DNA of 50,364 bases from a virus (Duplodnaviria > Heunggongvirae > Uroviricota > Caudoviricetes), in the IMG/VR virus record IMGVR_UViG_2563366831_000011, positions 1 through 50,364 of that record. One strand, written 5' to 3'. Below, piece after piece: positions 4,027 to 50,364 of the stretch (positions are counted from its first letter, which is position 1; the number at the start of each line of letters is the position of its first letter). The notes under the pieces are model-generated. The model had not been told where the DNA came from. It made no database searches and saw only the letters and a list, made by a program, of their open reading frames with translations. Both the position numbers and the translations under genes were made by a program.

Positions 4027-4046
4027 TACTGTTTTTATATACAGTA
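4027..4046 (-). promoter_or_regulatory. LexA (SOS) box TACTGTTTTTATATACAGTA
   Basis: Matches the CTGT-N8-ACAG consensus with flanking TA/TA; sits 18 nt upstream of the 3770..4009 start codon, overlapping the likely -10. Confidence 0.6.
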
Positions 4047-8798: not shown

Positions 8799-10023
8799 TT
8801 ACCGCCTCCGTTATGATGTTTGTCGCATCGAGGGTCGGTTCCTGATCTATCCCCATAGTCAGCGCACTAGACCAGGTGGTTCCGTCCAGAGAGATCTGGA
8901 CAGAAAGAACGTTCATGTTCTGTGCATCGAGCGCCTGAATGGGTCCGATATAGCGGCTGCCATAAATTCGCGCGCCGGCACGCGCCCGGGTACCTCCATC
9001 TGCGCCGGTAAAGGCATTCAGGACGACCGTTCTGATCTGCGCGTTGATATCTGACGGAAGGCCATCATTTTCCTCATATTCCACCTTGATATGAACACTC
9101 ACCGCGTCCAGCGTTTTCCACCTGTAGGTGTACTCCGGATAAGGGGCGTCATAATTTTCGGTATCCTGCACGGTCCCGGTGGTGTCACCGTTCATAACGG
9201 TGCCCGGGGGGAGTTTTTTATTGATGGCCGCTGCAATCTCAGCTACTGCCCCGCCATAAACCCCGATATAAATCGAGCTGGCCAGCAGTGTGTAATTCGT
9301 GGAACCTTTTTCGACGGAAGTCGGCTCTTTGTTGTCGATCACATAAACATCAAGCACCCCGTCGACTTCCAGGACAGCAGCCCGCACAGCCGCCGCCGTG
9401 TTGAAGGCGTTACGTGCCACTGACTGGCGACGGCGATACTCAAATGCAGATCGCCCTTCAACATTCGAGCCCGGTACACCCGCGGTCTCGTTGGTGATAC
9501 TCGACCAGCCACTTACCGCGACATAGATGTTTGTCAGCGTACCGATGGGGCAAGCTATCGGACCGGTAGTCAGGTTCTGGAACTCAATTTTTACCGTCCC
9601 GTCTGCGCCAATCGTTCCGGCCGCCAGGGACACGTACATATAACCGTTATCGTCTGTTGCATAGGACTGTGCCGGAATAACCGTTCCCGGTACGCCGGAG
9701 CATGTGGCCGTTACAACCGTACCCGCAGCAGCAATACGATCGAGGAAGTAAATCCTGCCAATGCCATCCTGAAATCTTCCGGAGGAAAAGTCCGGGTTCA
9801 TGTTGTTGACGATAGCCAGAAGCTGATCGTTCTTGTCTGCGATGATTGCAGTATCAGTGACAGCCAGTTGCCCCTGTGGCGTCTTGAGGTTCGTGCTCAT
9901 CGCCGTCCCGAATGCAGAACCAATATCTGCTATACGCCCGGCAAGAATGTCTCCCTCATCCGGAACATCAAGGCCAGTGGTGGAAAAGGTCACGGCCGGT
10001 ACCGCCGTAGAGATTGTCGTCAT
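8791..10023 (-). CDS. Baseplate J-like protein
   Basis: 410 aa from MTTISTAV (GAGGA SD); size and position fit the baseplate J/gp47 family; assignment by recalled family features. Confidence 0.6.
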   Translation of the reverse strand: MTTISTAVPAVTFSTTGLDVPDEGDILAGRIADIGSAFGTAMSTNLKTPQGQLAVTDTAIIADKNDQLLAIVNNMNPDFSSGRFQDGIGRIYFLDRIAAAGTVVTATCSGVPGTVIPAQSYATDDNGYMYVSLAAGTIGADGTVKIEFQNLTTGPIACPIGTLTNIYVAVSGWSSITNETAGVPGSNVEGRSAFEYRRRQSVARNAFNTAAAVRAAVLEVDGVLDVYVIDNKEPTSVEKGSTNYTLLASSIYIGVYGGAVAEIAAAINKKLPPGTVMNGDTTGTVQDTENYDAPYPEYTYRWKTLDAVSVHIKVEYEENDGLPSDINAQIRTVVLNAFTGADGGTRARAGARIYGSRYIGPIQALDAQNMNVLSVQISLDGTTWSSALTMGIDQEPTLDATNIITEAVSE

Positions 10024-10030
10024 TTTTTCC

Positions 10031-10387
10031 TCACAGGGTGACGCTGGAATCCAGGCCGTTGGTATCCACGATCGCAATAACGCCGGTAGTGCGGCGCGTA
10101 TCGCGGTTGTTAATCAGCGTCGGCTCAGCTCGCGCGATATAGCTCATCCGCAACGCTTCAACCTGAAGCGCGGCCGCCATGGCGCCAGTGCTGGCCTTAA
10201 CGTTAAGCAGCTCTTTGTAATTAACGCCGGTGTCTTTTTCGTAAATGCACTCGCCGCGTATAGCCAGGCATGCCGTCGCTACGTCCTGAGCGCAGGCGTA
10301 GGGGTTTTCAACCGTGGCGATATTACCCAGCTCATCAAGGACAAGATCCCAGGTGTCGGGATCGAGTTTGAGAGAGATTGTTTTCAT
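10031..10387 (-). CDS. Small baseplate protein (gpW/gp25-like position)
   Basis: 118 aa ORF immediately upstream of the J-like gene. Confidence 0.45.
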   Translation of the reverse strand: MKTISLKLDPDTWDLVLDELGNIATVENPYACAQDVATACLAIRGECIYEKDTGVNYKELLNVKASTGAMAAALQVEALRMSYIARAEPTLINNRDTRRTTGVIAIVDTNGLDSSVTL

Positions 10388-10442
10388 GGATTTCGCCCAT
10401 AAAAAAACCCAGCCGAAGCTGGGTTTGTTAAGTTGTCAATTG

Positions 10443-11447
10443 TCAGTAGCGATGCAGTGAAGGCGGCAACTCTTTGTTCTTAAGTCTTACCCATGCGGAA
10501 AGATTCGTTGGTCCGTCTGGCTCATTGATATCAACATCTCGTGTGTGGTTGATTAAAACGTCTCTCGCCATTCCGATAACATACGAAAACTCATGACCGT
10601 AGTCGTAGCATCTTCCGGAATAGTTCGATTGAATTTGTTTTAATGCCGGATACAGTTCGCGGAATAATGCCTGTGATCGGTTAGCATAATCCCACAACCA
10701 TACAAGGCTGTTTGCTTCTTTTGCAGAAAGCTCGTTGGTGCTCTTCTCTTGTTTGCCAATGAACTCACCTTCAAGTGGAACTCGAGCTGCAAGTGACAGT
10801 GCTTCGGTAAACTGCTCCTCACTGATTTCTTTGTACGAACAGCCAAAATGAGATTTCAGTGACGACCACATAGTGATCATCGCCTTCGCCTGTTTTTCTT
10901 TTGGCAGAGACTGACCGCGACTCATGACGAGTTGTTTAATAGCTTCCTGCTGTTCAGTGGTGATTTTACCCGGCAACACCTTTTTAGCTTTGCGCGGGTT
11001 AACCACATGGCCTTTAGTCCAGTACTCGTAGAGCACATCGTCACACTCTTCCTGATACTGGATTACCTTGTCGCGGATTTCAGGGCGGACTTTGTTTGGT
11101 TGAATGCTTGAAAGCCAAGCCGCAAATTTACGAAAGGCAAGACATGTCATTAACTGTTTACCGCCAGCAGAAGGTATTTCGATTTCCGAAATACCTTTGG
11201 CAAACCTCTGTTTTAACTTAACAAATTGAGCAGCCCAAACCATCCCCATACCTTCAACAACAGGCTTCATAGGAACATAAGGCTCATTGTTAATTCCAAC
11301 CAAAAAGAGATTTGTTCCGTGGAATGGAACATTGATTGTGCGATCTGCAATTGCTAAACTAGTCATATCAGTTTTCTCGTGGTTAACTGGTAATTTAGAA
11401 GCCTCAATGGTTGCAGCCATTGAGGCTTCGCTGTTTTTAGCGACCAT
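10443..11447 (-). CDS. ant: Antirepressor (P22 Ant-like)
   Basis: 334 aa from MVAKNSE (GAGGTG SD; tracked ORF starts upstream at 11489); directly downstream of an Arc-like RHH gene and divergent from an Mnt-like gene, as in P22 immI. Confidence 0.55.
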
Positions 11448-11610
11448 TCGCCACCTCTTCCCTAACACCTTTTGCCAGCAAACGAACAATTGCAGAGTTC
11501 AGAGATATACAGTCCATTTCCGCCAGGCGGCGAAGGTCTTCATTCAGCCGTGATGGAAGGCGAAGGTTGAGTTTGATATTTTTGCGCTCAGTGAAAAGTG
11601 TATCTTGCAT
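11437..11610 (-). CDS. arc: Arc-like ribbon-helix-helix repressor
   Basis: 57-aa ORF found by hand (below the ORF-track cutoff): [45 protein letters not shown]; RHH pattern similar to P22 Arc. Confidence 0.55.
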
Positions 11611-11717
11611 TATCTAATCTCCTTTATTTGGTGCCAAAGTGACACCATGAAGGCCATGATGCCACCATTGAAATCGTATGGCAATATGGCACCATGATTT
11701 TTTTTGAGAGATTTGCA
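11611..11717. promoter_or_regulatory. Divergent promoter/operator region between arc-ant and mnt
   Basis: 107-bp intergenic with repeated GGTGCCA/TGGCACC-type motifs; by analogy with P22 Pant/Pmnt. Confidence 0.4.
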
Positions 11718-12038
11718 ATGGCCGAAAAACAAGTAAAAGACTACGACAAGTTCAACCTCCGTTTTCCTGACGGAATGCGAGATGCTATAGCTGAACGAGC
11801 CAAACGAAACGGGCGCTCTATGAACTCAGAGATTGTTCAGATACTGGAAGATGCCTTGAATGCAGAAAATACACTCGGGGAAATAGCAGATAAAATTAAC
11901 AGCGTCTCGGTTCCGCTAAATGTTGATGCGCTAGTTCAACTTCAAGCCCAGGTTATCGCCATGCAAAAAGAAATACAGGAAAAGTTCAGAGAGCAGAACG
12001 AAAAGTTGAGAGAACTGCTAAACAAAAAACCCACCTGA
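11718..12038 (+). CDS. mnt: Mnt-like ribbon-helix-helix repressor
   Basis: 106 aa from MAEKQVKD; FNLRFPDGMRDAIAERAKRNGRSMNSEIVQILEDAL resembles the P22 Mnt N-terminus; coiled-coil C-terminus. Confidence 0.6.
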   Translation: MAEKQVKDYDKFNLRFPDGMRDAIAERAKRNGRSMNSEIVQILEDALNAENTLGEIADKINSVSVPLNVDALVQLQAQVIAMQKEIQEKFREQNEKLRELLNKKPT

Positions 12039-12049
12039 CGGTGGGTTTT
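12024..12049. terminator. Bidirectional intrinsic terminator
   Basis: AAAAAA-CCCACC-TGAC-GGTGGG-TTTT between convergent mnt and the lipoprotein gene. Confidence 0.55.
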
Positions 12050-12051
12050 GG

Positions 12052-12705
12052 CTAGTACATCGACTTGATCTGCGTGGTACCGTCCGGAACGCCGTACTTG
12101 CTCATTTTCCAACAGGCCTCAGCAACCTGGATTATTTGGTATCTCATTTCAGGGCCAATTCCTTCTGTTAAGCTAATGTGCTGTTTCATAAACTCAAGGG
12201 TCACGCCTTCCCTTTGGGCTGCCCCCGCCACCCGGCACATATGCCTTACCCCGGCGTCAGAATCAGCCTGCTGGTATGGGTATCGGGCCATTAGAGAATA
12301 GTAGACATTATTTAAAGTGTAAGACGCAGCATCAATCTCACGCTTGGCCATACACTCCTTACTAGCCTGACACTCAGCTTCTTTCTGTGCTGCAAATGCT
12401 TCGTTTTCTTTTCTTTCTTTTTCTCTTTTTTTATCCATCATGGAATCGAAGACATTGGCATATTTATTGTAGTAGCAGACGTTATCTTTAAGGCATTCGC
12501 TTGTGTTTTGCTCAGGAAGGTTTAATCCAGTAACGTTTTTATATATCTCTCTTAGATCGTCTACAGACTGAGTACCACCTGAATTTGTTTTGAATTTTTG
12601 CTTATCAAAGCCATGCTCTTTTTGGTATTGGATAGCCTCAGTAGGAGATAAAGCACAGCTTGATAATAAAAATACCAAGGGGATAAAATATATTTTACTT
12701 ACCAT
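12052..12705 (-). CDS. Lipoprotein, unknown function
   Basis: 217 aa; N-terminal signal peptide with lipobox LLSSC; charged coiled segment; last gene downstream of the gpV-like spike gene. Confidence 0.6.
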   Translation of the reverse strand: MVSKIYFIPLVFLLSSCALSPTEAIQYQKEHGFDKQKFKTNSGGTQSVDDLREIYKNVTGLNLPEQNTSECLKDNVCYYNKYANVFDSMMDKKREKERKENEAFAAQKEAECQASKECMAKREIDAASYTLNNVYYSLMARYPYQQADSDAGVRHMCRVAGAAQREGVTLEFMKQHISLTEGIGPEMRYQIIQVAEACWKMSKYGVPDGTTQIKSMY

Positions 12706-12706
12706 T

Positions 12707-13294
12707 TCACGGCTCCAGGGGTTCAGTTCGGCTTCCTCCTGATACTACCCCACCATGAGTATGCCCATCAACGATAGAACCGTCGACAAGCTCAAGCTGC
12801 CCGTTTGGATGGACTTTCAGGCCGTTGATGTTAACCACTCCAGGGCTCTGTATGTTTATTCCGCTTCCTGTAAACTCAGCGAACTCCGTGGGTTCATCGT
12901 TCAAACTAGCGATAGCAGTGATGTAAACAGCATCCGAGTATGAATGGCGCCGCTGAGTTGGCGGTGGTCCACTTTGCCTTGACGCTCTGACATTGGTTGT
13001 GTCTTTGTCACAGGCGATTACCAGTCCAATATCGCCAATGCGGGGAGTCATTTTTACAGCGCTGTTCCCAGCCTGATACCGAATGAAGGGGATGTCATAT
13101 ACCTCCTGACATTTAATCTCCCCCCCGGAAACGTTCGCGCCGCTCACAAGAGGTAGCACAGTCATAACGCCATCACCAACATCTTTAACCAGAACAATAT
13201 CTGCAAAAACATTGCCCTTTGATGCCGTGGCTATAAGGGACAAGATCGCGTTACCCTGACAGGAGATATCAGAAGCTTTTTGGTTAGTTGCCAT
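12707..13294 (-). CDS. Baseplate central spike protein (gpV-like)
   Basis: 195 aa from MATNQKAS (GGAGGGG SD); C-terminal HTHGG motif typical of spike tips; position in baseplate cluster. Confidence 0.5.
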   Translation of the reverse strand: MATNQKASDISCQGNAILSLIATASKGNVFADIVLVKDVGDGVMTVLPLVSGANVSGGEIKCQEVYDIPFIRYQAGNSAVKMTPRIGDIGLVIACDKDTTNVRASRQSGPPPTQRRHSYSDAVYITAIASLNDEPTEFAEFTGSGINIQSPGVVNINGLKVHPNGQLELVDGSIVDGHTHGGVVSGGSRTEPLEP

Positions 13295-14153
13295 TGCTTT
13301 CCCCTCCGATGACAGATGCCGGAGATGCCACAACAAACGTCTCCCAAAGCCCACCAGGCACTTTACAGGACAGATAGTGGGTAGTCCCCGCCTGCACCAC
13401 CCACTCGCCGCTAGCGTGTGGCAAGTCTGTTTTCAGGATGATCTTCGTATTCAATTTTAGCGCCGGTGAATAAATGCACCTAAAGTTAATCCCCATCTCA
13501 TAAAATATTGGATACCCAATAAGTCCATGCTCTGGCGAAATTAACGGAACAACTGAATCCGACGGTGTTTTGCCTGTATAAATTGTGACAGTGCCAAAAT
13601 CTATATCAACAGATATGTCATGCGCTGCCGCAATTTTTAATATTTGGATTATTGCGTTGTCATCGAAATACGGATTCCGATGCGTCGCTTTGACGTCGAC
13701 ATTGATGAATTTCAGGCCAACTTTAAAGGCAAGAGCACGAATCATATCAGCAACATCAGCATCGCCGCGAATGGACGTAGGCTCGCAGGGGATCAGGCGC
13801 TCCCTGCCGGCGGCCGCCGCGGTTATCTCAATCGGTGCGTCCGGCATCTGGTTCAGGTTAATCCTGGCAGATGTTATTGACCCGGAAAAAACACGGGTGT
13901 CGCCGGCGTAAACGACAATTGAGTTCTGTGCATACGCGATTATCTTTTGCGCGTTGGTCGTCAACTTTGACATGTTTTCCAGGGAAAGTCCCCAGAGGCT
14001 AAGTTCAAGAATCGTTCCGGTAGCGCCGCCAAATGCTGATATAGCCGCCTCACACTTGAAACCTTTAACCGTCAAGGTGTCGCCAATGTCGCCGTCAAAC
14101 GTACCGTTGGCCAGCGTGAACGATACGGTAAGCTCTCTCTCCTTGTAACTCAT
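13284..14153 (-). CDS. Tail/baseplate structural protein (hub-like)
   Basis: 289 aa; between tape measure and spike genes. Confidence 0.45.
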   Translation of the reverse strand: MSYKERELTVSFTLANGTFDGDIGDTLTVKGFKCEAAISAFGGATGTILELSLWGLSLENMSKLTTNAQKIIAYAQNSIVVYAGDTRVFSGSITSARINLNQMPDAPIEITAAAAGRERLIPCEPTSIRGDADVADMIRALAFKVGLKFINVDVKATHRNPYFDDNAIIQILKIAAAHDISVDIDFGTVTIYTGKTPSDSVVPLISPEHGLIGYPIFYEMGINFRCIYSPALKLNTKIILKTDLPHASGEWVVQAGTTHYLSCKVPGGLWETFVVASPASVIGGESNGN

Positions 14154-14455
14154 CTGCCGACCTCACTGCTCGTCGCATAATACAGCTTGAATCTGGTGCC
14201 GATTTCGTCGTAATAGGGATCGGCTGTACCTTTTGAATCAACGAAAACCAGATCGCCACTGAACCCCAGATATTTATACCGAACCAGGTAAACGCAGTTC
14301 AGGCAGAGAACACCCTGAAATATCGGCTTGTCATCGACATACAGATCGGCGTAAAACCCGGTTGAACGCTGATGTAACTTGATCGCGCAGTTCTGGCCGT
14401 CAAGCGTGACATAGACCTTTTGGGATAGTGACGGTGATAAGCTAATTTCCTGCAT
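14150..14455 (-). CDS. Tail protein, hypothetical
   Basis: 101 aa ORF in the tail operon with overlapping stop/start. Confidence 0.4.
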   Translation of the reverse strand: MQEISLSPSLSQKVYVTLDGQNCAIKLHQRSTGFYADLYVDDKPIFQGVLCLNCVYLVRYKYLGFSGDLVFVDSKGTADPYYDEIGTRFKLYYATSSEVGR

Positions 14456-14456
14456 G

Positions 14457-15296
14457 TCACATCACCTTTTCCAGAAAGTCGGAGACGGTGCTTTTTATCT
14501 GCTTAGAAACTGCAGTTGAAGAGCTGTCCCACGACTTAGAGACCGACTCGGCTGCCGAGTTAACGTTAGACACAATCGCCGCCCCAGTCGTCTGGAGAGC
14601 GTCTGATAAGGTTGTATCTGCACTTGACCAGGCATTCTTAACATCGCTCAATGTCACCTCTTTCGTCGCCCCGGTGATCACCTGCGTTGATGCTGCGGCG
14701 CCATTGTTGGTTTTCGCATTGCTGGTCGGCGGCCCTTCAATAACAGCATTTGAAAGCATGACTTCCCCGCCGTCCATGATCTCCTCGAAAGTGCAGTTAG
14801 CCATCAACAACGTCTGCCCGCGATACGAACCCACAAAGTAATCGAAGTGGGTCAGATCGTAGCTGTAATACACCGTGTCCGGCGTCTCGATGTTGTAGGT
14901 GCTGGCCGTGTTTTTCATCTCATCCAGTTTCTGAATGAAATTATTCCTGCTCAGCAGAGAGAAGTTGGTCAGGTTAGGCAGTGACCCGGAAAAAGCCGTC
15001 CACCCCTCAAGGGCAAAAATGATCCTGAGTTCAGACGGCTGTTTCACTTTGTTGTAGGACGTGTACCGGCCCTTTTCTACCGGCCCCTTAGTCACTGCCG
15101 CATCACCGTAGCGATCAACGCTAACCCAGCCGGAAGGAGAGAAAACCTCCTGCCCGGCTGCAGCCGTCAAAAGCGACTCGTCAACGGTGTTATAGGTGAT
15201 CCGGTAAGTTGGCGACAGGGCGCTGTTAAGGACGGATAACAGGCTTCCTCCCTGAATGGCGGATAGCACTGTCGAGACATTCAGAGAAAACGACAT
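14457..15296 (-). CDS. Tail protein, hypothetical
   Basis: 279 aa ORF immediately downstream of the tape measure gene. Confidence 0.45.
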   Translation of the reverse strand: MSFSLNVSTVLSAIQGGSLLSVLNSALSPTYRITYNTVDESLLTAAAGQEVFSPSGWVSVDRYGDAAVTKGPVEKGRYTSYNKVKQPSELRIIFALEGWTAFSGSLPNLTNFSLLSRNNFIQKLDEMKNTASTYNIETPDTVYYSYDLTHFDYFVGSYRGQTLLMANCTFEEIMDGGEVMLSNAVIEGPPTSNAKTNNGAAASTQVITGATKEVTLSDVKNAWSSADTTLSDALQTTGAAIVSNVNSAAESVSKSWDSSSTAVSKQIKSTVSDFLEKVM

Positions 15297-17915: not shown

Positions 17916-17962
17916 GCCCACCGTAGTGGGCCATTCAAAAACCACGAATTTGTGGTTTTCAT
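17916..17962 (-). terminator. Tandem hairpins downstream of rha copy 1
   Basis: AAAACCAC-GAATTT-GTGGTTTT and GCCCAC-CGTA-GTGGGC followed by T-rich tracts on the minus strand. Confidence 0.45.
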
Positions 17963-18516
17963 GATTCGGTAAGCGCACCAGGAAAACCGGGCAATGCCAA
18001 CTGACCTTGCTTGTCCAGTTGCTCAATGCGTGAAAGTAGCTGTGGCTTCTTCTCTTTCCCCCACCGGCGCAACAGACGACCAGACATACTGGCAACATCC
18101 TTCTCTTTAAGGAACTCCAGCATGACGGCGTTACGCTCTTCTTCAAACTGGCGCCGCCCAACCTGAAGCATCGCGTACATCCAGTTGAAGGCGTTGATGT
18201 AGGCGATCTTGATACGCATCGCCTCTTTTTTGGTGTAGGACATAACCAGAAGCATCAATCCATCTTTGCGGAGGCGATAGAACTTCTGCGGCTTTCCGTT
18301 CTGCAACTCATTGTTTTTATAGCAAACCTCAAAATTGAGTTTTGTATCGAACTCTTCCGGGCATGCCTTAATAGTCTTTTCGATATCACGAATGACGTTG
18401 TCAGGACGTTTCCCAAATGCCTTCGCCACCATAAACGAGTCAGTTACCGGGTCGTTGTCAGCAACAAAAATGAGGTCACGGAAATCAAGTCCGTTAATAA
18501 CTGTTGGGTATGACAT
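17959..18516 (-). CDS. rha: Rha-family phage regulatory protein (moron copy 1)
   Basis: 185 aa; recalled Rha-family N-terminal domain; inserted between tail tube and chaperone genes and flanked by terminators. Confidence 0.65.
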   Translation of the reverse strand: MSYPTVINGLDFRDLIFVADNDPVTDSFMVAKAFGKRPDNVIRDIEKTIKACPEEFDTKLNFEVCYKNNELQNGKPQKFYRLRKDGLMLLVMSYTKKEAMRIKIAYINAFNWMYAMLQVGRRQFEEERNAVMLEFLKEKDVASMSGRLLRRWGKEKKPQLLSRIEQLDKQGQLALPGFPGALTES

Positions 18517-33494: not shown

Positions 33495-33570
33495 TGGTGC
33501 TGTTTAACGGACTTGAACCGCTACCCATTCGCTTACAAGGCGACCGCTCTACCATTGGAGCTAAAACAGC
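33495..33570 (-). tRNA. tRNA-Thr (anticodon UGU), phage-encoded
   Basis: 76 nt; perfect 7-bp acceptor stem, 4-bp D stem, anticodon loop CTTGTAA, T-loop TTCAAGT, discriminator A then CCA (folded by eye). Confidence 0.75.
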
Positions 33571-33575
33571 ATGTT

Positions 33576-33650
33576 TGGCGGGACAGCGTGGACTCGAACC
33601 ACGATAAGAAGGTTAACAGCCTTCCGTAATGACCTTTATACGACTGACCC
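33576..33650 (-). tRNA. tRNA-Asn-like (anticodon GUU), possibly degenerate
   Basis: 75 nt; 5-bp anticodon stem with loop CTGTTAA, T-stem and TTCGAGT loop, terminal CCA; one mismatch each in acceptor and D stems. Confidence 0.45.
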
Positions 33651-40273: not shown

Positions 40274-40483
<210 letters not shown>

Positions 40484-40571: not shown

Positions 40572-41288
<717 letters not shown>

Positions 41289-41415: not shown

Positions 41416-42273
41416 ATGAAGAAAGCAGCAATTTTAATTGATGCGGGTTTTTTCATGCAGCGTGTTCATGCTACGCATCGTAAACACTTCGCCGAGCATG
41501 AACTGACTGCGCAATGCATAATGAAAGTAATATGGTCAATGGTTCTTTCCCATCTTAATGGAAAACGTCAATCACAAGAACGTAGGGAACCGCTTGAGCT
41601 TTATAGAATTTACTTCTATGACTGTCCACCACTCGACATTCAAACACGCCTTCCACTTCCTGAGCATGGCAATAAGACGCCTGGTCGCAAGAATTTCAAA
41701 CTCGAAAAATCATATATTCTGAGAACGGAGCTGCATGAAGAGTTAAGAAAAACTCGAAAAACAGCCTTAAGATTAGGGAATCTTGTTGATAATAAGCGAT
41801 GGCAACTAACTACATTCTCCCTTGATGCTCTGATGAAAGGAACGAAAAAATGGGATGAACTGACAAATGATGATTTTTACTATGACATCAAACAAAAACA
41901 AGTTGATATCAAGCTAGGGATGGATATCACGACTTTAGCTTATGAAAAACTTGTTGATGTAATTGTCCTTGTTGCTGGGGACTCAGACTTTGTGCCTGCC
42001 GCCAAACACGCCAGAATTAAAGGTATTGATTTTATTCTTGATCCACTAAGACAGAATGTTACCCCATCACTGTCAGAGCACATTGATGGAGTTCAGTCAT
42101 ACAGCTTGATATCAGGACTTGCCGATGCTTTACATGTTGAGCCAGACCCGGCACCTGACTGGTGGGAAGATCGAAAAAAAGGCAAGCCTAGAGGAAAAAA
42201 CAATAGCGGTAAACGCAGGTATGGAAACACTCAAGCTGAGTCTGCAAAGAAACATCAAAGAAATAAACGATAA
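41416..42273 (+). CDS. NYN/PIN-like putative ribonuclease in the rex slot
   Basis: 285 aa; N-terminal AAILIDAGFF and VIVLVAGDSDFVPAAKHARIKGIDF match NYN-domain acidic motifs; basic Lys/Arg-rich C-terminal tail; same strand as cI, upstream of oL/pL. Confidence 0.55.
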   Translation: MKKAAILIDAGFFMQRVHATHRKHFAEHELTAQCIMKVIWSMVLSHLNGKRQSQERREPLELYRIYFYDCPPLDIQTRLPLPEHGNKTPGRKNFKLEKSYILRTELHEELRKTRKTALRLGNLVDNKRWQLTTFSLDALMKGTKKWDELTNDDFYYDIKQKQVDIKLGMDITTLAYEKLVDVIVLVAGDSDFVPAAKHARIKGIDFILDPLRQNVTPSLSEHIDGVQSYSLISGLADALHVEPDPAPDWWEDRKKGKPRGKNNSGKRRYGNTQAESAKKHQRNKR

Positions 42274-48161: not shown

Positions 48162-48329
48162 ATGCACTTCCGAGTCACAGGTGAATGGAATGGAGAGCCA
48201 TTCGACAGGGTTATCGAAGCAGAGGACATCAACGACTGCTATAACCACTGGATGATATGGGCGCAGATAGCGCATGCAGACGTAACCAATATTCGAATTG
48301 AAGAACTGAAAGAACACCAAGCCGCCTGA
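48162..48329 (+). CDS. Small hypothetical protein (55 aa)
   Basis: GGAGATGATAA region upstream of the ATG; followed by an intrinsic terminator. Confidence 0.35.
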   Translation: MHFRVTGEWNGEPFDRVIEAEDINDCYNHWMIWAQIAHADVTNIRIEELKEHQAA

Positions 48330-48341
48330 TGGCGGTTTTTT
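48321..48341 (+). terminator. Intrinsic terminator
   Basis: GCCGCC-TGAT-GGCGG followed by TTTTTT. Confidence 0.55.
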
Positions 48342-48352
48342 ATTGCCTGATT

Positions 48353-48369
48353 TGCAGGTTCGATTCCCT
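48353..48369 (+). other. Fragment matching the argW T-arm (TTGCAGGTTCGATTCC)
   Basis: 16-nt identity to tRNA positions 1054..1069, upstream of the excisionase-like gene; non-overlapping with the attR core. Confidence 0.5.
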
Positions 48370-48386
48370 ATTCGGAGATAGCACTC

Positions 48387-48587
48387 ATGCAACACGAACT
48401 ACAGCCTGATTCACTGGTTGATTTGAAATTCATCATGGCCGATACTGGCTTCGGTAAAACCTTCATCTACGACCGGATTAAGTCCGGCGACCTGCCAAAA
48501 GCCAAAGTTATCCACGGACGAGCAAGATGGTTATATCGTGACCATTGTGAATTCAAAAATAAGCTCTTAAGCCGCGCTAATGGGTAA
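48387..48587 (+). CDS. torI: AlpA/TorI-family excisionase (recombination directionality factor)
   Basis: 66 aa; FIYDRIKSGDLPKAKVIHGRARWL fits the AlpA winged-helix pattern; recalled as the KplE1 TorI sequence; lies between tRNA-derived repeats at the prophage end. Confidence 0.6.
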   Translation: MQHELQPDSLVDLKFIMADTGFGKTFIYDRIKSGDLPKAKVIHGRARWLYRDHCEFKNKLLSRANG

Positions 48588-48660
48588 AATAGCGGGTAAA
48601 ATATTTCTCACATCTAAAAAATATCATTCCAATCAACCCCCTGCCGCGCCAAGTAGATGT

Positions 48661-48675
48661 CTGCAGGGGACACCA
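48661..48675 (+). repeat. attR core: 15-bp direct repeat CTGCAGGGGACACCA
   Basis: Exact copy of the tRNA 3-prime end at 1069..1083. Confidence 0.65.
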
Positions 48676-49116
48676 GATACCCTTCAAACGAAATCTACCT
48701 TCACCCCGTAAAAGATGGGTTTGGCAGCACACTTGCCTTATATCTACTCATTTTTACTGCAACAGGTTGAAATCTCAGCACTGTCAGAAAGCGCTGATGA
48801 CTAAACAGCCCTGGGCCGGGCGATGTAACCATCACACAGAATCCTGATAGCGAAATATGGCGTGACTCGATACTTCACTCCGCAATGCATTCCTTGATGA
48901 ATTCGCAGGACCGTGATACACGGGACAGGTCACTGAATGACGACAATGTCCTGGAAATCAGCGAACCGCGCATCTGAAGTACATTTGAGCGACTGTACCA
49001 GAACATGAATGAGGCGTTTGGATTAGGCGATTATTAGCAGGGCTAAGCATTTTACTATTATTATTTTCCGGTTGAGGGATATAGAGCTATCGACAACAAC
49101 CGGAAAAAGTTTACGT

Positions 49117-50364
49117 CTATATTGCTGAAGGTACAGGCGTTTCCATAACTATTTGCTCGCGTTTTTTACTCAAGAAGAAAATGCCAAATAGCAACATCAG
49201 GCAGACAATACCCGAAATTGCGAAGAAAACTGTCTGGTAGCCTGCGTGGTCAAAGAGTATCCCAGTCGGCGTTGAAAGCAGCACAATCCCAAGCGAACTG
49301 GCAATTTGAAAACCAATCAGAAAGATCGTCGACGACAGGCGCTTATCAAAGTTTGCCACGCTGTATTTGAAGACGGATATGACACAAAGTGGAACCTCAA
49401 TGGCATGTAACAACTTCACTAATGAAATAATCCAGGGGTTAACGAACAGCGCGCAGGAAAGGATACGCAACGCCATAATCACAACTCCGATAAGTAATGC
49501 ATTTTTTGGCCCTACCCGATTCACAAAGAAAGGAATAATCGCCATGCACAGCGCTTCGAGTACCACCTGGAATGAGTTGAGATAACCATACAGGCGCGTT
49601 CCTACATCGTGTGATTCGAATAAACCTGCATAAAAGACAGGAAAAAGTTGTTGATCAAAAATGTTATAGAAAGACCACGTCCCCACAATAAATATGACGA
49701 AAACCCAGAAGTTTCGATCCTTGAAAACTGCGATAAAATCCTCTTTTTTTACCCCTCCCGCATCTGCCGCTACGCACTGGTGATCCTTATCTTTAAAACG
49801 CATGTTGATCATCATAAATACAGCGCCAAATAGCGAGACCAACCAGAAGTTGATATGGGGACTGATACTAAAAAATATGCCGGCAAAGAACGCGCCAATA
49901 GCATAGCCAAAAGATCCCCAGGCGCGCGCTGTTCCATATTCGAAATGAAAATTTCGCGCCATTTTTTCGGTGAAGCTATCAAGCAAACCGCATCCCGCCA
50001 GATACCCCAAGCCAAAAAATAGCGCCCCCAGAATTAGACCTACAGAAAAATTGCTTTGCAGTAACGGTTCATAAACGTAAATCATAAACGGTCCGGTCAA
50101 GACCAGGATGAAACTCATACACCAGATGAGCGGTTTCTTCAGACCGAGTTTATCCTGAACGATGCCGTAGAACATCATAAATAGAATGCTGGTAAACTGG
50201 TTGACCGAATAAAGTGTACCTAATTCCGTCCCTGTCAACCCTAGATGTCCTTTCAGCCAAATAGCGTATAACGACCACCACAGCGACCAGGAAATAAAAA
50301 AGAGAAATGAGTAACTGGATGCAAAACGATAGTACGCATTTCTGAATGGAATATTCAGTGCCAT
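49117..50364 (-). CDS. cscB: Sucrose:proton symporter-like MFS transporter
   Basis: 415 aa; many hydrophobic helices; N-terminus MALNIPFRNAYYRFASSYSFLFFISWSLWW recognised from memory as CscB/LacY family; start codon at the last three bases of the window. Confidence 0.8.
   Translation of the reverse strand: MALNIPFRNAYYRFASSYSFLFFISWSLWWSLYAIWLKGHLGLTGTELGTLYSVNQFTSILFMMFYGIVQDKLGLKKPLIWCMSFILVLTGPFMIYVYEPLLQSNFSVGLILGALFFGLGYLAGCGLLDSFTEKMARNFHFEYGTARAWGSFGYAIGAFFAGIFFSISPHINFWLVSLFGAVFMMINMRFKDKDHQCVAADAGGVKKEDFIAVFKDRNFWVFVIFIVGTWSFYNIFDQQLFPVFYAGLFESHDVGTRLYGYLNSFQVVLEALCMAIIPFFVNRVGPKNALLIGVVIMALRILSCALFVNPWIISLVKLLHAIEVPLCVISVFKYSVANFDKRLSSTIFLIGFQIASSLGIVLLSTPTGILFDHAGYQTVFFAISGIVCLMLLFGIFFLSKKREQIVMETPVPSAI

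Follow-up and report, generated by a model that had tools for sequence, protein, structure and literature searches.

A P22 immI-type module in the tail operon of a lambda-immune prophage

We analyzed a 50,364-nucleotide stretch of DNA from the Caudoviricetes (IMG/VR record IMGVR_UViG_2563366831_000011, positions 1 to 50,364; hereafter the window), which belongs to an E. coli prophage. At 10405-12049 it carries a complete module of the type known as immI in phage P22, made up of the genes mnt, arc and ant and the antisense RNA sar. A P22 immI-like module had been proposed here from the sequence alone; the homology is now seen gene by gene and in the topology of the whole, and we regard the identity of the module as confirmed, the E-values leaving no room for chance. 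By analogy with P22, this module is probably a functional, horizontally acquired "ant moron", which would give a lambda-immune prophage with myovirus-type structural genes a two-part immunity resembling that of P22.

The strongest evidence came from ant (10443-11366, minus strand). Its product matched both domains of the P22 antirepressor in Pfam, PF10547 P22_AR_N with 135 bits (cutoff 30.7) and PF10548 P22_AR_C with 102 bits (cutoff 22.4), as well as PHROG 245, "anti-repressor Ant" (6e-109). It was 56% identical to P22 Ant over 315 residues (E 6e-121), with the last ~100 residues nearly identical. A PDB sequence search with Ant retrieved no solved relative, and no NCBIfam equivalog was found for Ant or for the arc-like protein.

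The first gene of the arc-ant operon (11437-11610, minus strand) encodes a ribbon-helix-helix (RHH) protein of 57 residues, assigned to Arc by Pfam and to the Arc-like repressors by PHROG, and its ATG is preceded by AAGGAG. This protein showed 30% identity with P22 Arc and 64% with the product of the arc-like gene in the allele of Klebsiella phage KP12; its PDB matches were Arc repressor chains only, all weak (E 0.12). The mnt-like gene (11718-12038) lies 107 bp away on the opposite, plus strand and encodes an RHH repressor of 106 residues, which matched Pfam Arc with 73 bits and PDB 1MNT at 1.4e-7 and shared 50% identity with P22 Mnt over the RHH part. Its heptad-like sequence suggests a C-terminal helical extension. 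The divergent arrangement described in the sequence-only reading, an Mnt-like RHH gene facing an Arc-like and an Ant-like gene, was thus recovered in full, with P22_AR_N, P22_AR_C and Pfam Arc all matching above cutoff.

The surroundings of the module are late genes. Between 10031 and 13294, every long open reading frame (ORF) except the mnt-like gene lies on the minus strand, and the order in the direction of transcription is spike-like gene, ORF of 217 codons, mnt-like gene (on the plus strand), arc-like gene, ant, baseplate wedge gene and Baseplate_J gene. The minus-strand late genes of the prophage comprise the Q antiterminator, lysis, terminase, major head protein, tail sheath, tape measure, hub, spike, wedge, J and fibre genes; together they form one long late operon, that of a phage with a contractile tail, whose structural genes are of the E217/Pam3 type. 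The immI-type module sits inside this single minus-strand operon. Downstream, the module is flanked by the wedge or sheath-initiator gene (10031-10387, minus strand; P2 gpW/T4 gp25-like), which matched PHROG 120 at 5e-29 and, weakly and on identical products, PF10934 Sheath_initiator. The upstream structural gene (12707-13294, minus strand) was tentatively assigned as spike-like (gpV-like), from a weak match to PF18352 (22 bits, cutoff 26.1) and from its position after the hub gene, itself matched by PF22759 of Pfam. The divergent pair does lie between spike and wedge, as had been claimed, but mnt does not adjoin the spike gene directly since the 217-codon ORF intervenes.

The prophage adjoins a tRNA-Arg(CCU) gene, with the integrase gene beside it, and its early region is lambdoid, with CII- and N-like genes on both sides of CI/Cro. 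The cI gene (40575-41288, plus strand) encodes a protein with 232 of 236 residues identical to the lambda repressor PDB 3BDN, which agrees with the lambda immunity previously ascribed to this prophage; this CI is the presumed target of Ant. The divergent ORF of 66 codons at 40274-40474 (minus strand) we take to be lambda Cro.

The sar-like element and the start of ant

A sar-like element is present in the arc-ant spacer and would be expressed, as predicted from its sequence features, as an antisense RNA of ~70 nucleotides (11366-11438, plus strand) complementary to the ribosome-binding site and start codon of ant. The full-length Rfam model of sar (RF00262) matched 11366-11432 on the plus strand with 29.5 bits (E 0.0023). 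The spacer holds a 14-bp hairpin (11398-11429) followed by a T-run, which is found on the antisense strand only. The predicted RNA of ~74 nucleotides folds at -30.9 kcal/mol (z -5.65), and 7 of the 14 stem pairs show compensatory changes across eight alleles, P22 included. A candidate Psar promoter (TTGATT-17 nucleotides-TAAACT; 11332-11360, plus strand) lies in antisense orientation inside the first ant codons. It occupies the register of Psar in P22, annotated as GTGTTA-17-TATACT at P22 15097-15125, and the best antisense promoter-like element falls exactly in that register in every allele, whether of the Ant type or of the Rha type described below. Further Rfam matches, to STnc370, ctRNA_pGA1, sroH and others, were dismissed as far below threshold and reflecting terminator hairpins.

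Since the gene of this sar-like RNA occupies the arc-ant spacer, ant very probably starts at ATG 11366 and encodes 307 residues. Its ORF stays open upstream as far as TTG 11489, and both the sequence-only reading and RefSeq-style annotation had chosen ATG 11447, giving a protein of 334 residues that we believe to be over-extended by 27 codons. The alignment with P22 Ant begins at residue 28 of the longer form, i.e., at ATG 11366, which leaves a spacer of 70 nucleotides after the arc stop codon, compared with 68 in P22. The upstream ATG is wholly missing in several alleles of the module, and in one related locus (L014) the public gene call also gives 307 residues. A reasonable Shine-Dalgarno sequence before ATG 11447 counts against the short start. 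The identification of the product as a P22-type antirepressor stands; the length first given for it has probably to be reduced. The annotated N-terminus of a Rha protein found behind the same hairpin in related loci, MVSKNSEAPLAATFGAS, is probably translated hairpin sequence, an over-extension like that of the longer Ant.

The divergent control region

The arc-like and mnt-like genes diverge from a control region of 107 bp (11611-11717), in which we found four copies of the repeat TGGTGNCA, one on the plus strand (11629-36) and three on the minus strand (11640-47, 11660-67 and 11687-94). These four of the 12 copies in the window fall within 66 bp, while 6 copies would be expected by chance in the entire window. 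The clustering agrees with the operator-like character attributed to this intergenic region from the start. Two copies form an imperfect palindrome of 19 bp just upstream of the arc ribosome-binding site. A candidate Pant promoter can be drawn on the minus strand (TTGCCA at 11684-79, 17 nucleotides, TGgCATCAT at 11661-56); one repeat overlaps its spacer and -10 element, and the palindrome lies downstream of it, like the mnt operator in P22. The top match of the promoter scan was not credible as Pant, as it overlaps the arc start codon.

In other alleles of the module, this place is taken by three or four copies of a different motif for each allele; those of the KP12/L009 type, for example, have TGGTNCTA repeats, and those of the L010 type have CCCCACGGTGGGG palindromes that recall the mnt operator of P22. 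Distinct repressor/operator specificities would look like this. Binding of the repeats in the window by the Mnt-like and Arc-like proteins is presumed by homology with P22.

With one mismatch allowed, no LexA site of the form CTGT-N8-ACAG was detected within 9670-15268, and an antirepressor under SOS control was ruled out on this ground. The sole site in the window without a mismatch is a perfect LexA-box-like palindrome, CTGTTTTTATATACAG, at 4029-4044, between small ORFs of the tail-fibre region.

Exchange of the cassette among lambdoid phages

A cassette found in Stx-converting and other lambdoid phages of E. coli matched positions 10403-12045 of the window at 97-98% identity. Phages 2851, YYZ-2008 and 1717 and the prophages of O157:H7 carry essentially the same DNA, annotated as "phage antirepressor Ant; Arc family DNA-binding protein x2". 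In phage 2851 it lies between tail genes L and K and is co-directional with the tail genes. The tail operon of these phages is, in contrast to that of the window, of the lambda siphovirus type, and their flanks are unrelated to those of the window apart from a similar terminator hairpin. Matching sequence from the region occurred in 1255 of 5426 complete E. coli genomes, at up to 7 places per genome, and annotations of O157:H7 prophages routinely include the cassette; E. coli commonly carries this module, which is of an ordinary kind.

Each end of the cassette is marked by a hairpin. An intrinsic terminator with a 9-bp stem followed by a T-run was detected by a terminator scan downstream of ant, immediately upstream of the wedge gene (10405-10426, minus strand), and ~39 bp around it are kept in nearly all related loci, whatever their cargo. 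At the other end, a hairpin between the convergent mnt and 217-codon genes (12026-12049) was detected by the scan on the minus strand and is followed on the plus strand by four T (then GGCT), as fits the bidirectional terminator proposed earlier. The match to the Stx-phage cassette begins at 10403 and ends at 12045. Klebsiella phages share 96-99% identity with the window on the wedge/J side, as far as 10391-10427, and only 70-78% on the spike/hub side; in assemblies sharing the spike side, similarity to the backbone resumes at 12022-12024. Because the boundaries of the matches fall at 10391-10427 and 12022-12024, the two terminator hairpins can be identified as the joints of the cassette. The cassette moves as a unit between the two hairpins and has been exchanged among podovirus, siphovirus and myovirus-type late operons. 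The backbone itself shows a sharp mosaic joint at the cargo site (10391-10427 and 12022-12715).

The comparison with phage 2851 revealed 53 differences, 38 of them in ant (31 synonymous and 7 non-synonymous). The arc gene and the sar spacer were identical, and the two differences in mnt were both synonymous. The cassette is under purifying selection.

The spike-wedge junction is a cargo hotspot

We surveyed 79 IMG/VR loci that hold both a wedge and a spike gene, a sample biased to near-identical wedge proteins. A scan of a genome collection with the wedge protein gave one confirmed locus (Raoultella), so that the survey rests on IMG/VR contigs. The gap between spike and wedge ranged from 461 to 5286 bp and its content varied: a P22-type Ant module was present in 16 loci and a Rha/KilA module in 20, and the other 43 had no antirepressor, their gap holding a lipoprotein gene, a secreted ORF of 262 codons or a small membrane ORF. 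RHH genes were detectable in 33 of the 36 loci with an antirepressor module. The window's own allele was found in only two of the 79 loci; an E. coli assembly locus (L011) was 100% identical to the window over 9000-14200.

Relatives whose wedge and J genes are 96-99% identical to those of the window thus hold other content at this place, consistent with the insertion that had been postulated at the spike-wedge junction. Presence is variable between conserved flanks and terminators stand at both joints, as is characteristic of a moron, and the junction is a cargo hotspot in this lineage.

The alleles with Rha and KilA have the arc gene, the hairpin, the ribosome-binding site, the first few codons and the antisense -10 element in common with the Ant alleles, which indicates that one regulatory chassis (mnt, arc, sar-like hairpin, antisense promoter and first few effector codons) serves different effectors. 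Rha and KilA stand behind a homologous mnt-arc-hairpin chassis for instance in Klebsiella phage KP12 (L007, 8364-10530) and in IMG/VR loci L018, L031 and L034. It is possible, though in our view less likely than not, that the junction is a dedicated "second immunity" locus, where a conserved chassis with allele-specific operator repeats would drive interchangeable effectors, either Ant or Rha plus KilA. The alleles would then be immI specificities deciding which co-resident or superinfecting lambdoid phages, lambda-immune ones included, induce or overrun each other.

The location of the cassette within the late operon, bracketed by two terminators, also raises the question of a mainly transcriptional role. 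The terminators, the convergent mnt gene and the RHH repressors would then tune late transcription from hub and spike into wedge, J and fibres, with Ant of minor importance, and a comparable setting of the tailspike level has been suggested for the ant moron of P22 (PMC2629481). We consider this improbable, since relatives cope with a gap of 461 bp or hold unrelated cargo there, the counts given above show ant to be under clear purifying selection, and the recurrence of Ant or Rha/KilA effectors at this site argues that the effector matters.

The second cargo of the window at this junction is the 217-codon ORF (12052-12705, minus strand), a predicted lipoprotein gene with the lipobox LLSSC. 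Its product matched PHROG 26209 (unknown function) at 7e-148 and had no match in Pfam, PADLOC or NCBIfam. The gene belongs to the spike-wedge island as a cargo in its own right, outside immI: relatives carry the lipoprotein gene both with and without the antirepressor module. The identical protein was indexed in 403 blocks of a public collection of draft assemblies. Neither the phage collection nor the 5426 complete E. coli genomes yielded a match to the DNA of the gene, so that the exact arrangement of the window is absent from these genomes, and no place in them covered at least 80% of window 9800-13400. By analogy with sieA, which lies beside immI in P22, the lipoprotein may be a cargo of the superinfection-exclusion type. 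In relatives, its slot is taken by an ORF of 262 codons with a signal peptide or by a small membrane ORF.

Possible function and targets of Ant

If the module works like its P22 counterpart, the lysogen would produce the Mnt-like RHH protein from a promoter of the mnt-like gene itself, and this protein would bind the TGGTGNCA repeats and keep the arc-ant promoter shut. Upon infection of a cell without a matching Mnt, arc-ant would be transcribed briefly, and Ant would bind CI-type repressors non-covalently and inactivate them, be it the prophage's own lambda CI, the repressors of resident lambdoid prophages or both. Arc would then close the arc-ant promoter and the sar-like RNA would block translation of ant, also on Q-antiterminated late transcripts that read through the cassette to the wedge, J and fibre genes. 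The choice of operators, the use of promoters, the expression of sar and above all the target range of Ant are modelled in this scheme on P22.

Several observations weigh against a functional module that confers a second immunity. The arc-like protein barely passes Pfam Arc (22.1 bits for a cutoff of 20.4), and the N-terminal half of Ant is only ~40% identical to P22 Ant. The match to RF00262 is under the Rfam gathering score (29.5 versus 43), which is why we call the element sar-like and not a member of the curated family. The promoter-like matches are weak, with CATCAT as the -10 element of Pant and a weak Pmnt candidate that overlaps Pant, and the promoter scan was not enriched over shuffled sequences (5 found versus 3.7 expected). 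In one related locus (L021; IMGVR_UViG_3300045988_029238, ~5020), an otherwise identical allele has ATA at the equivalent of the proposed start 11366; the change may be an error of sequencing or a mutation that inactivates the gene, or it may point to use of the upstream ATG. Finally, the Ant homologue of the Stx phage Phi24B, in which the P22-like C-terminal domain is kept, gave no measurable relief of CI repression (PMC3064807), and P22 Ant is reported to be dispensable for the lytic and the lysogenic pathway as well as for induction (PMC3121763).

The ATA codon of L021, like the degraded ant morons known in some P22-like phages (PMC2629481), would fit a decaying, non-functional remnant. For the window we find this highly improbable, as all three ORFs (ant, arc-like and mnt-like) are intact, the hairpin, repeats and ribosome-binding sites are conserved, and the cassette recurs as a 100% identical copy in L011 and in the Stx phages at 97-98% with mostly synonymous changes.

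Two articles, both citing Susskind & Botstein 1975, report that P22 Ant inactivates the P22 repressor as well as those of L, lambda and 21 (PMC3121763, PMC3064807), in agreement with the action on lambda CI stated in the sequence-only reading. Because P22 Ant is reported to inactivate the lambda repressor, an action of Ant on the resident lambda CI is a reasonable idea. It is also an uncertain one by analogy, given the lack of a detectable effect of Phi24B Ant and the dispensability of P22 Ant.

Alternatively, the cassette could be a device for attack or cross-talk between phages, in which Ant inactivates the repressors of other prophages, inducing competitors or coupling induction, and not its own CI, while Mnt protects only against superinfecting phages of the same allele. 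P22 Ant has a broad range of targets, P22 can complete its cycle without it, and it has been proposed to couple the induction of prophages (PMC3121763). With several matching places in one E. coli genome, cells with multiple prophages must be common, and the many alleles with different operator repeats at one site are as expected for diversifying specificity. Set against this is the same literature, according to which P22 Ant does inactivate lambda CI (PMC3121763, PMC3064807). Control of the phage's own switch and action on other phages are not mutually exclusive, and the sequence does not distinguish between the targets; an exclusive role in cross-talk seems to us possible though rather doubtful.

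If the two-part immunity inferred from P22 is active, lambda CI alone would not define the immunity of this prophage. The prophage could be induced by any incoming phage whose ant is unrepressed and has a suitable target range, and the phage could itself lift the immunity of other lambdoid lysogens. This would bear on prophage induction and gene flow in E. coli with multiple prophages, including Stx phages with their nearly identical cassette. The locus is also a natural example of module exchange, with one cassette in three tail architectures and one chassis for two kinds of effector.

A reading of the module as a defence system or toxin-antitoxin pair was dropped after a PADLOC scan without meaningful match: there was none for Ant, the arc-like protein or the lipoprotein, and only marginal ones for the Mnt-like protein (E 0.002-0.007).

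Comparison with known immunity modules

In annotated P22, immI lies between the late genes 16 and 9, with mnt opposed to and arc-ant co-directional with the late genes, and sar is an antisense RNA of 69 nucleotides whose promoter lies inside the first ant codons and which ends in the arc-ant spacer. The window matches this layout with all four components (mnt-arc-sar-ant) in unchanged order and orientation; it likewise has RHH repressors on either side of a short divergent control region, a sar-like hairpin and candidate promoter in the P22 register, and a position within the late operon, with arc-ant read in the direction of the late genes. It differs from P22 in the divergence of its Arc-like protein and in an Mnt similarity confined to the RHH part (identities given above). 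The operator-like sequences are unrelated, the TGGTGNCA repeats of the window standing in place of the Oarc and Omnt palindromes of P22. The phage background is a contractile-tail structural module with lambda immC, compared with c2 in P22, and the neighbouring cargo is a lipoprotein gene on the late strand, compared with sieA in P22.

The presence of immI within the late operon and the variability of this region in P22-like phages are well documented (PMC8022706; PMC2629481). Villafane et al. coined the term "ant moron" for it and described ten types in sixteen genomes (PMC2629481). In epsilon34, CUS-3, HK620 and others, the ant moron is a variable, independently regulated insert of the late operon, often ant with or without arc/mnt (PMC2629481), and it shares with the window's locus the many alternative contents at one syntenic site. 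The site itself is different, i.e., the spike-wedge junction of a myovirus-type baseplate operon versus the junction of ejection-protein and tailspike genes of a podovirus, and so are the effectors, about half of the antirepressor alleles here using Rha/KilA. The LexA-controlled antirepressors GfoA/GfhA of Gifsy, AntC of N15 and Tum of 186 are likewise small proteins that inactivate a prophage repressor by binding, also in trans on other prophages (PMC3121763). They belong to other protein families and are induced by the SOS response via a LexA box, whereas the module of the window has RHH repressors and probably an antisense RNA.

The late-operon position is not unusual, being canonical for P22 immI, for the "ant moron" and for the Stx-phage cassette. 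P22 has for decades exemplified both the mechanism and the layout, a moron within the late operon, and current concepts are not changed by our results. What is new is modest: the combination of lambda immC with a myovirus-type baseplate operon as the host backbone; the spike-wedge junction as the hotspot equivalent of this lineage; and the sar-like element, the corrected start of ant and the single chassis for Ant and Rha/KilA effectors. A limited literature search found no paper on the spike-wedge hotspot of this lineage.

Other genes of the prophage

A second antirepressor-like gene occurs among the structural genes. This Rha-family regulator gene (17959-18516, minus strand), which matched TIGR02681 with 88.9 bits and, on identical products, PF09669 and PF10549, lies inside the tail operon between genes of the tail-tube region and the tape-measure chaperone gene, and it is kept in the Klebsiella relatives.

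Directly downstream of lambda cI, where lambda has rexA/rexB, the prophage carries an ORF of 285 codons (41416-42273, plus strand). Its product matched PHROG 5783 and showed weak NYN-nuclease-like matches (TIGR00288, 29.7 bits; PADLOC NYN and HEC-09, marginal), and it may be a defence gene expressed in the lysogen.

Genes for tRNA-Thr(TGT) and tRNA-Asn(GTT) are located at 33495-33650 (minus strand), just downstream of the Q antiterminator gene and before the lysis genes, which is the position of tRNA and stx genes in Stx phages. The right end of the window (48300-50364) matched E. coli chromosomes at 99.8% and includes torI, annotated as response regulator inhibitor TorI, and an MFS transporter gene, which suggests that the prophage adjoins what is left of another prophage that had integrated at this tRNA-Arg site.

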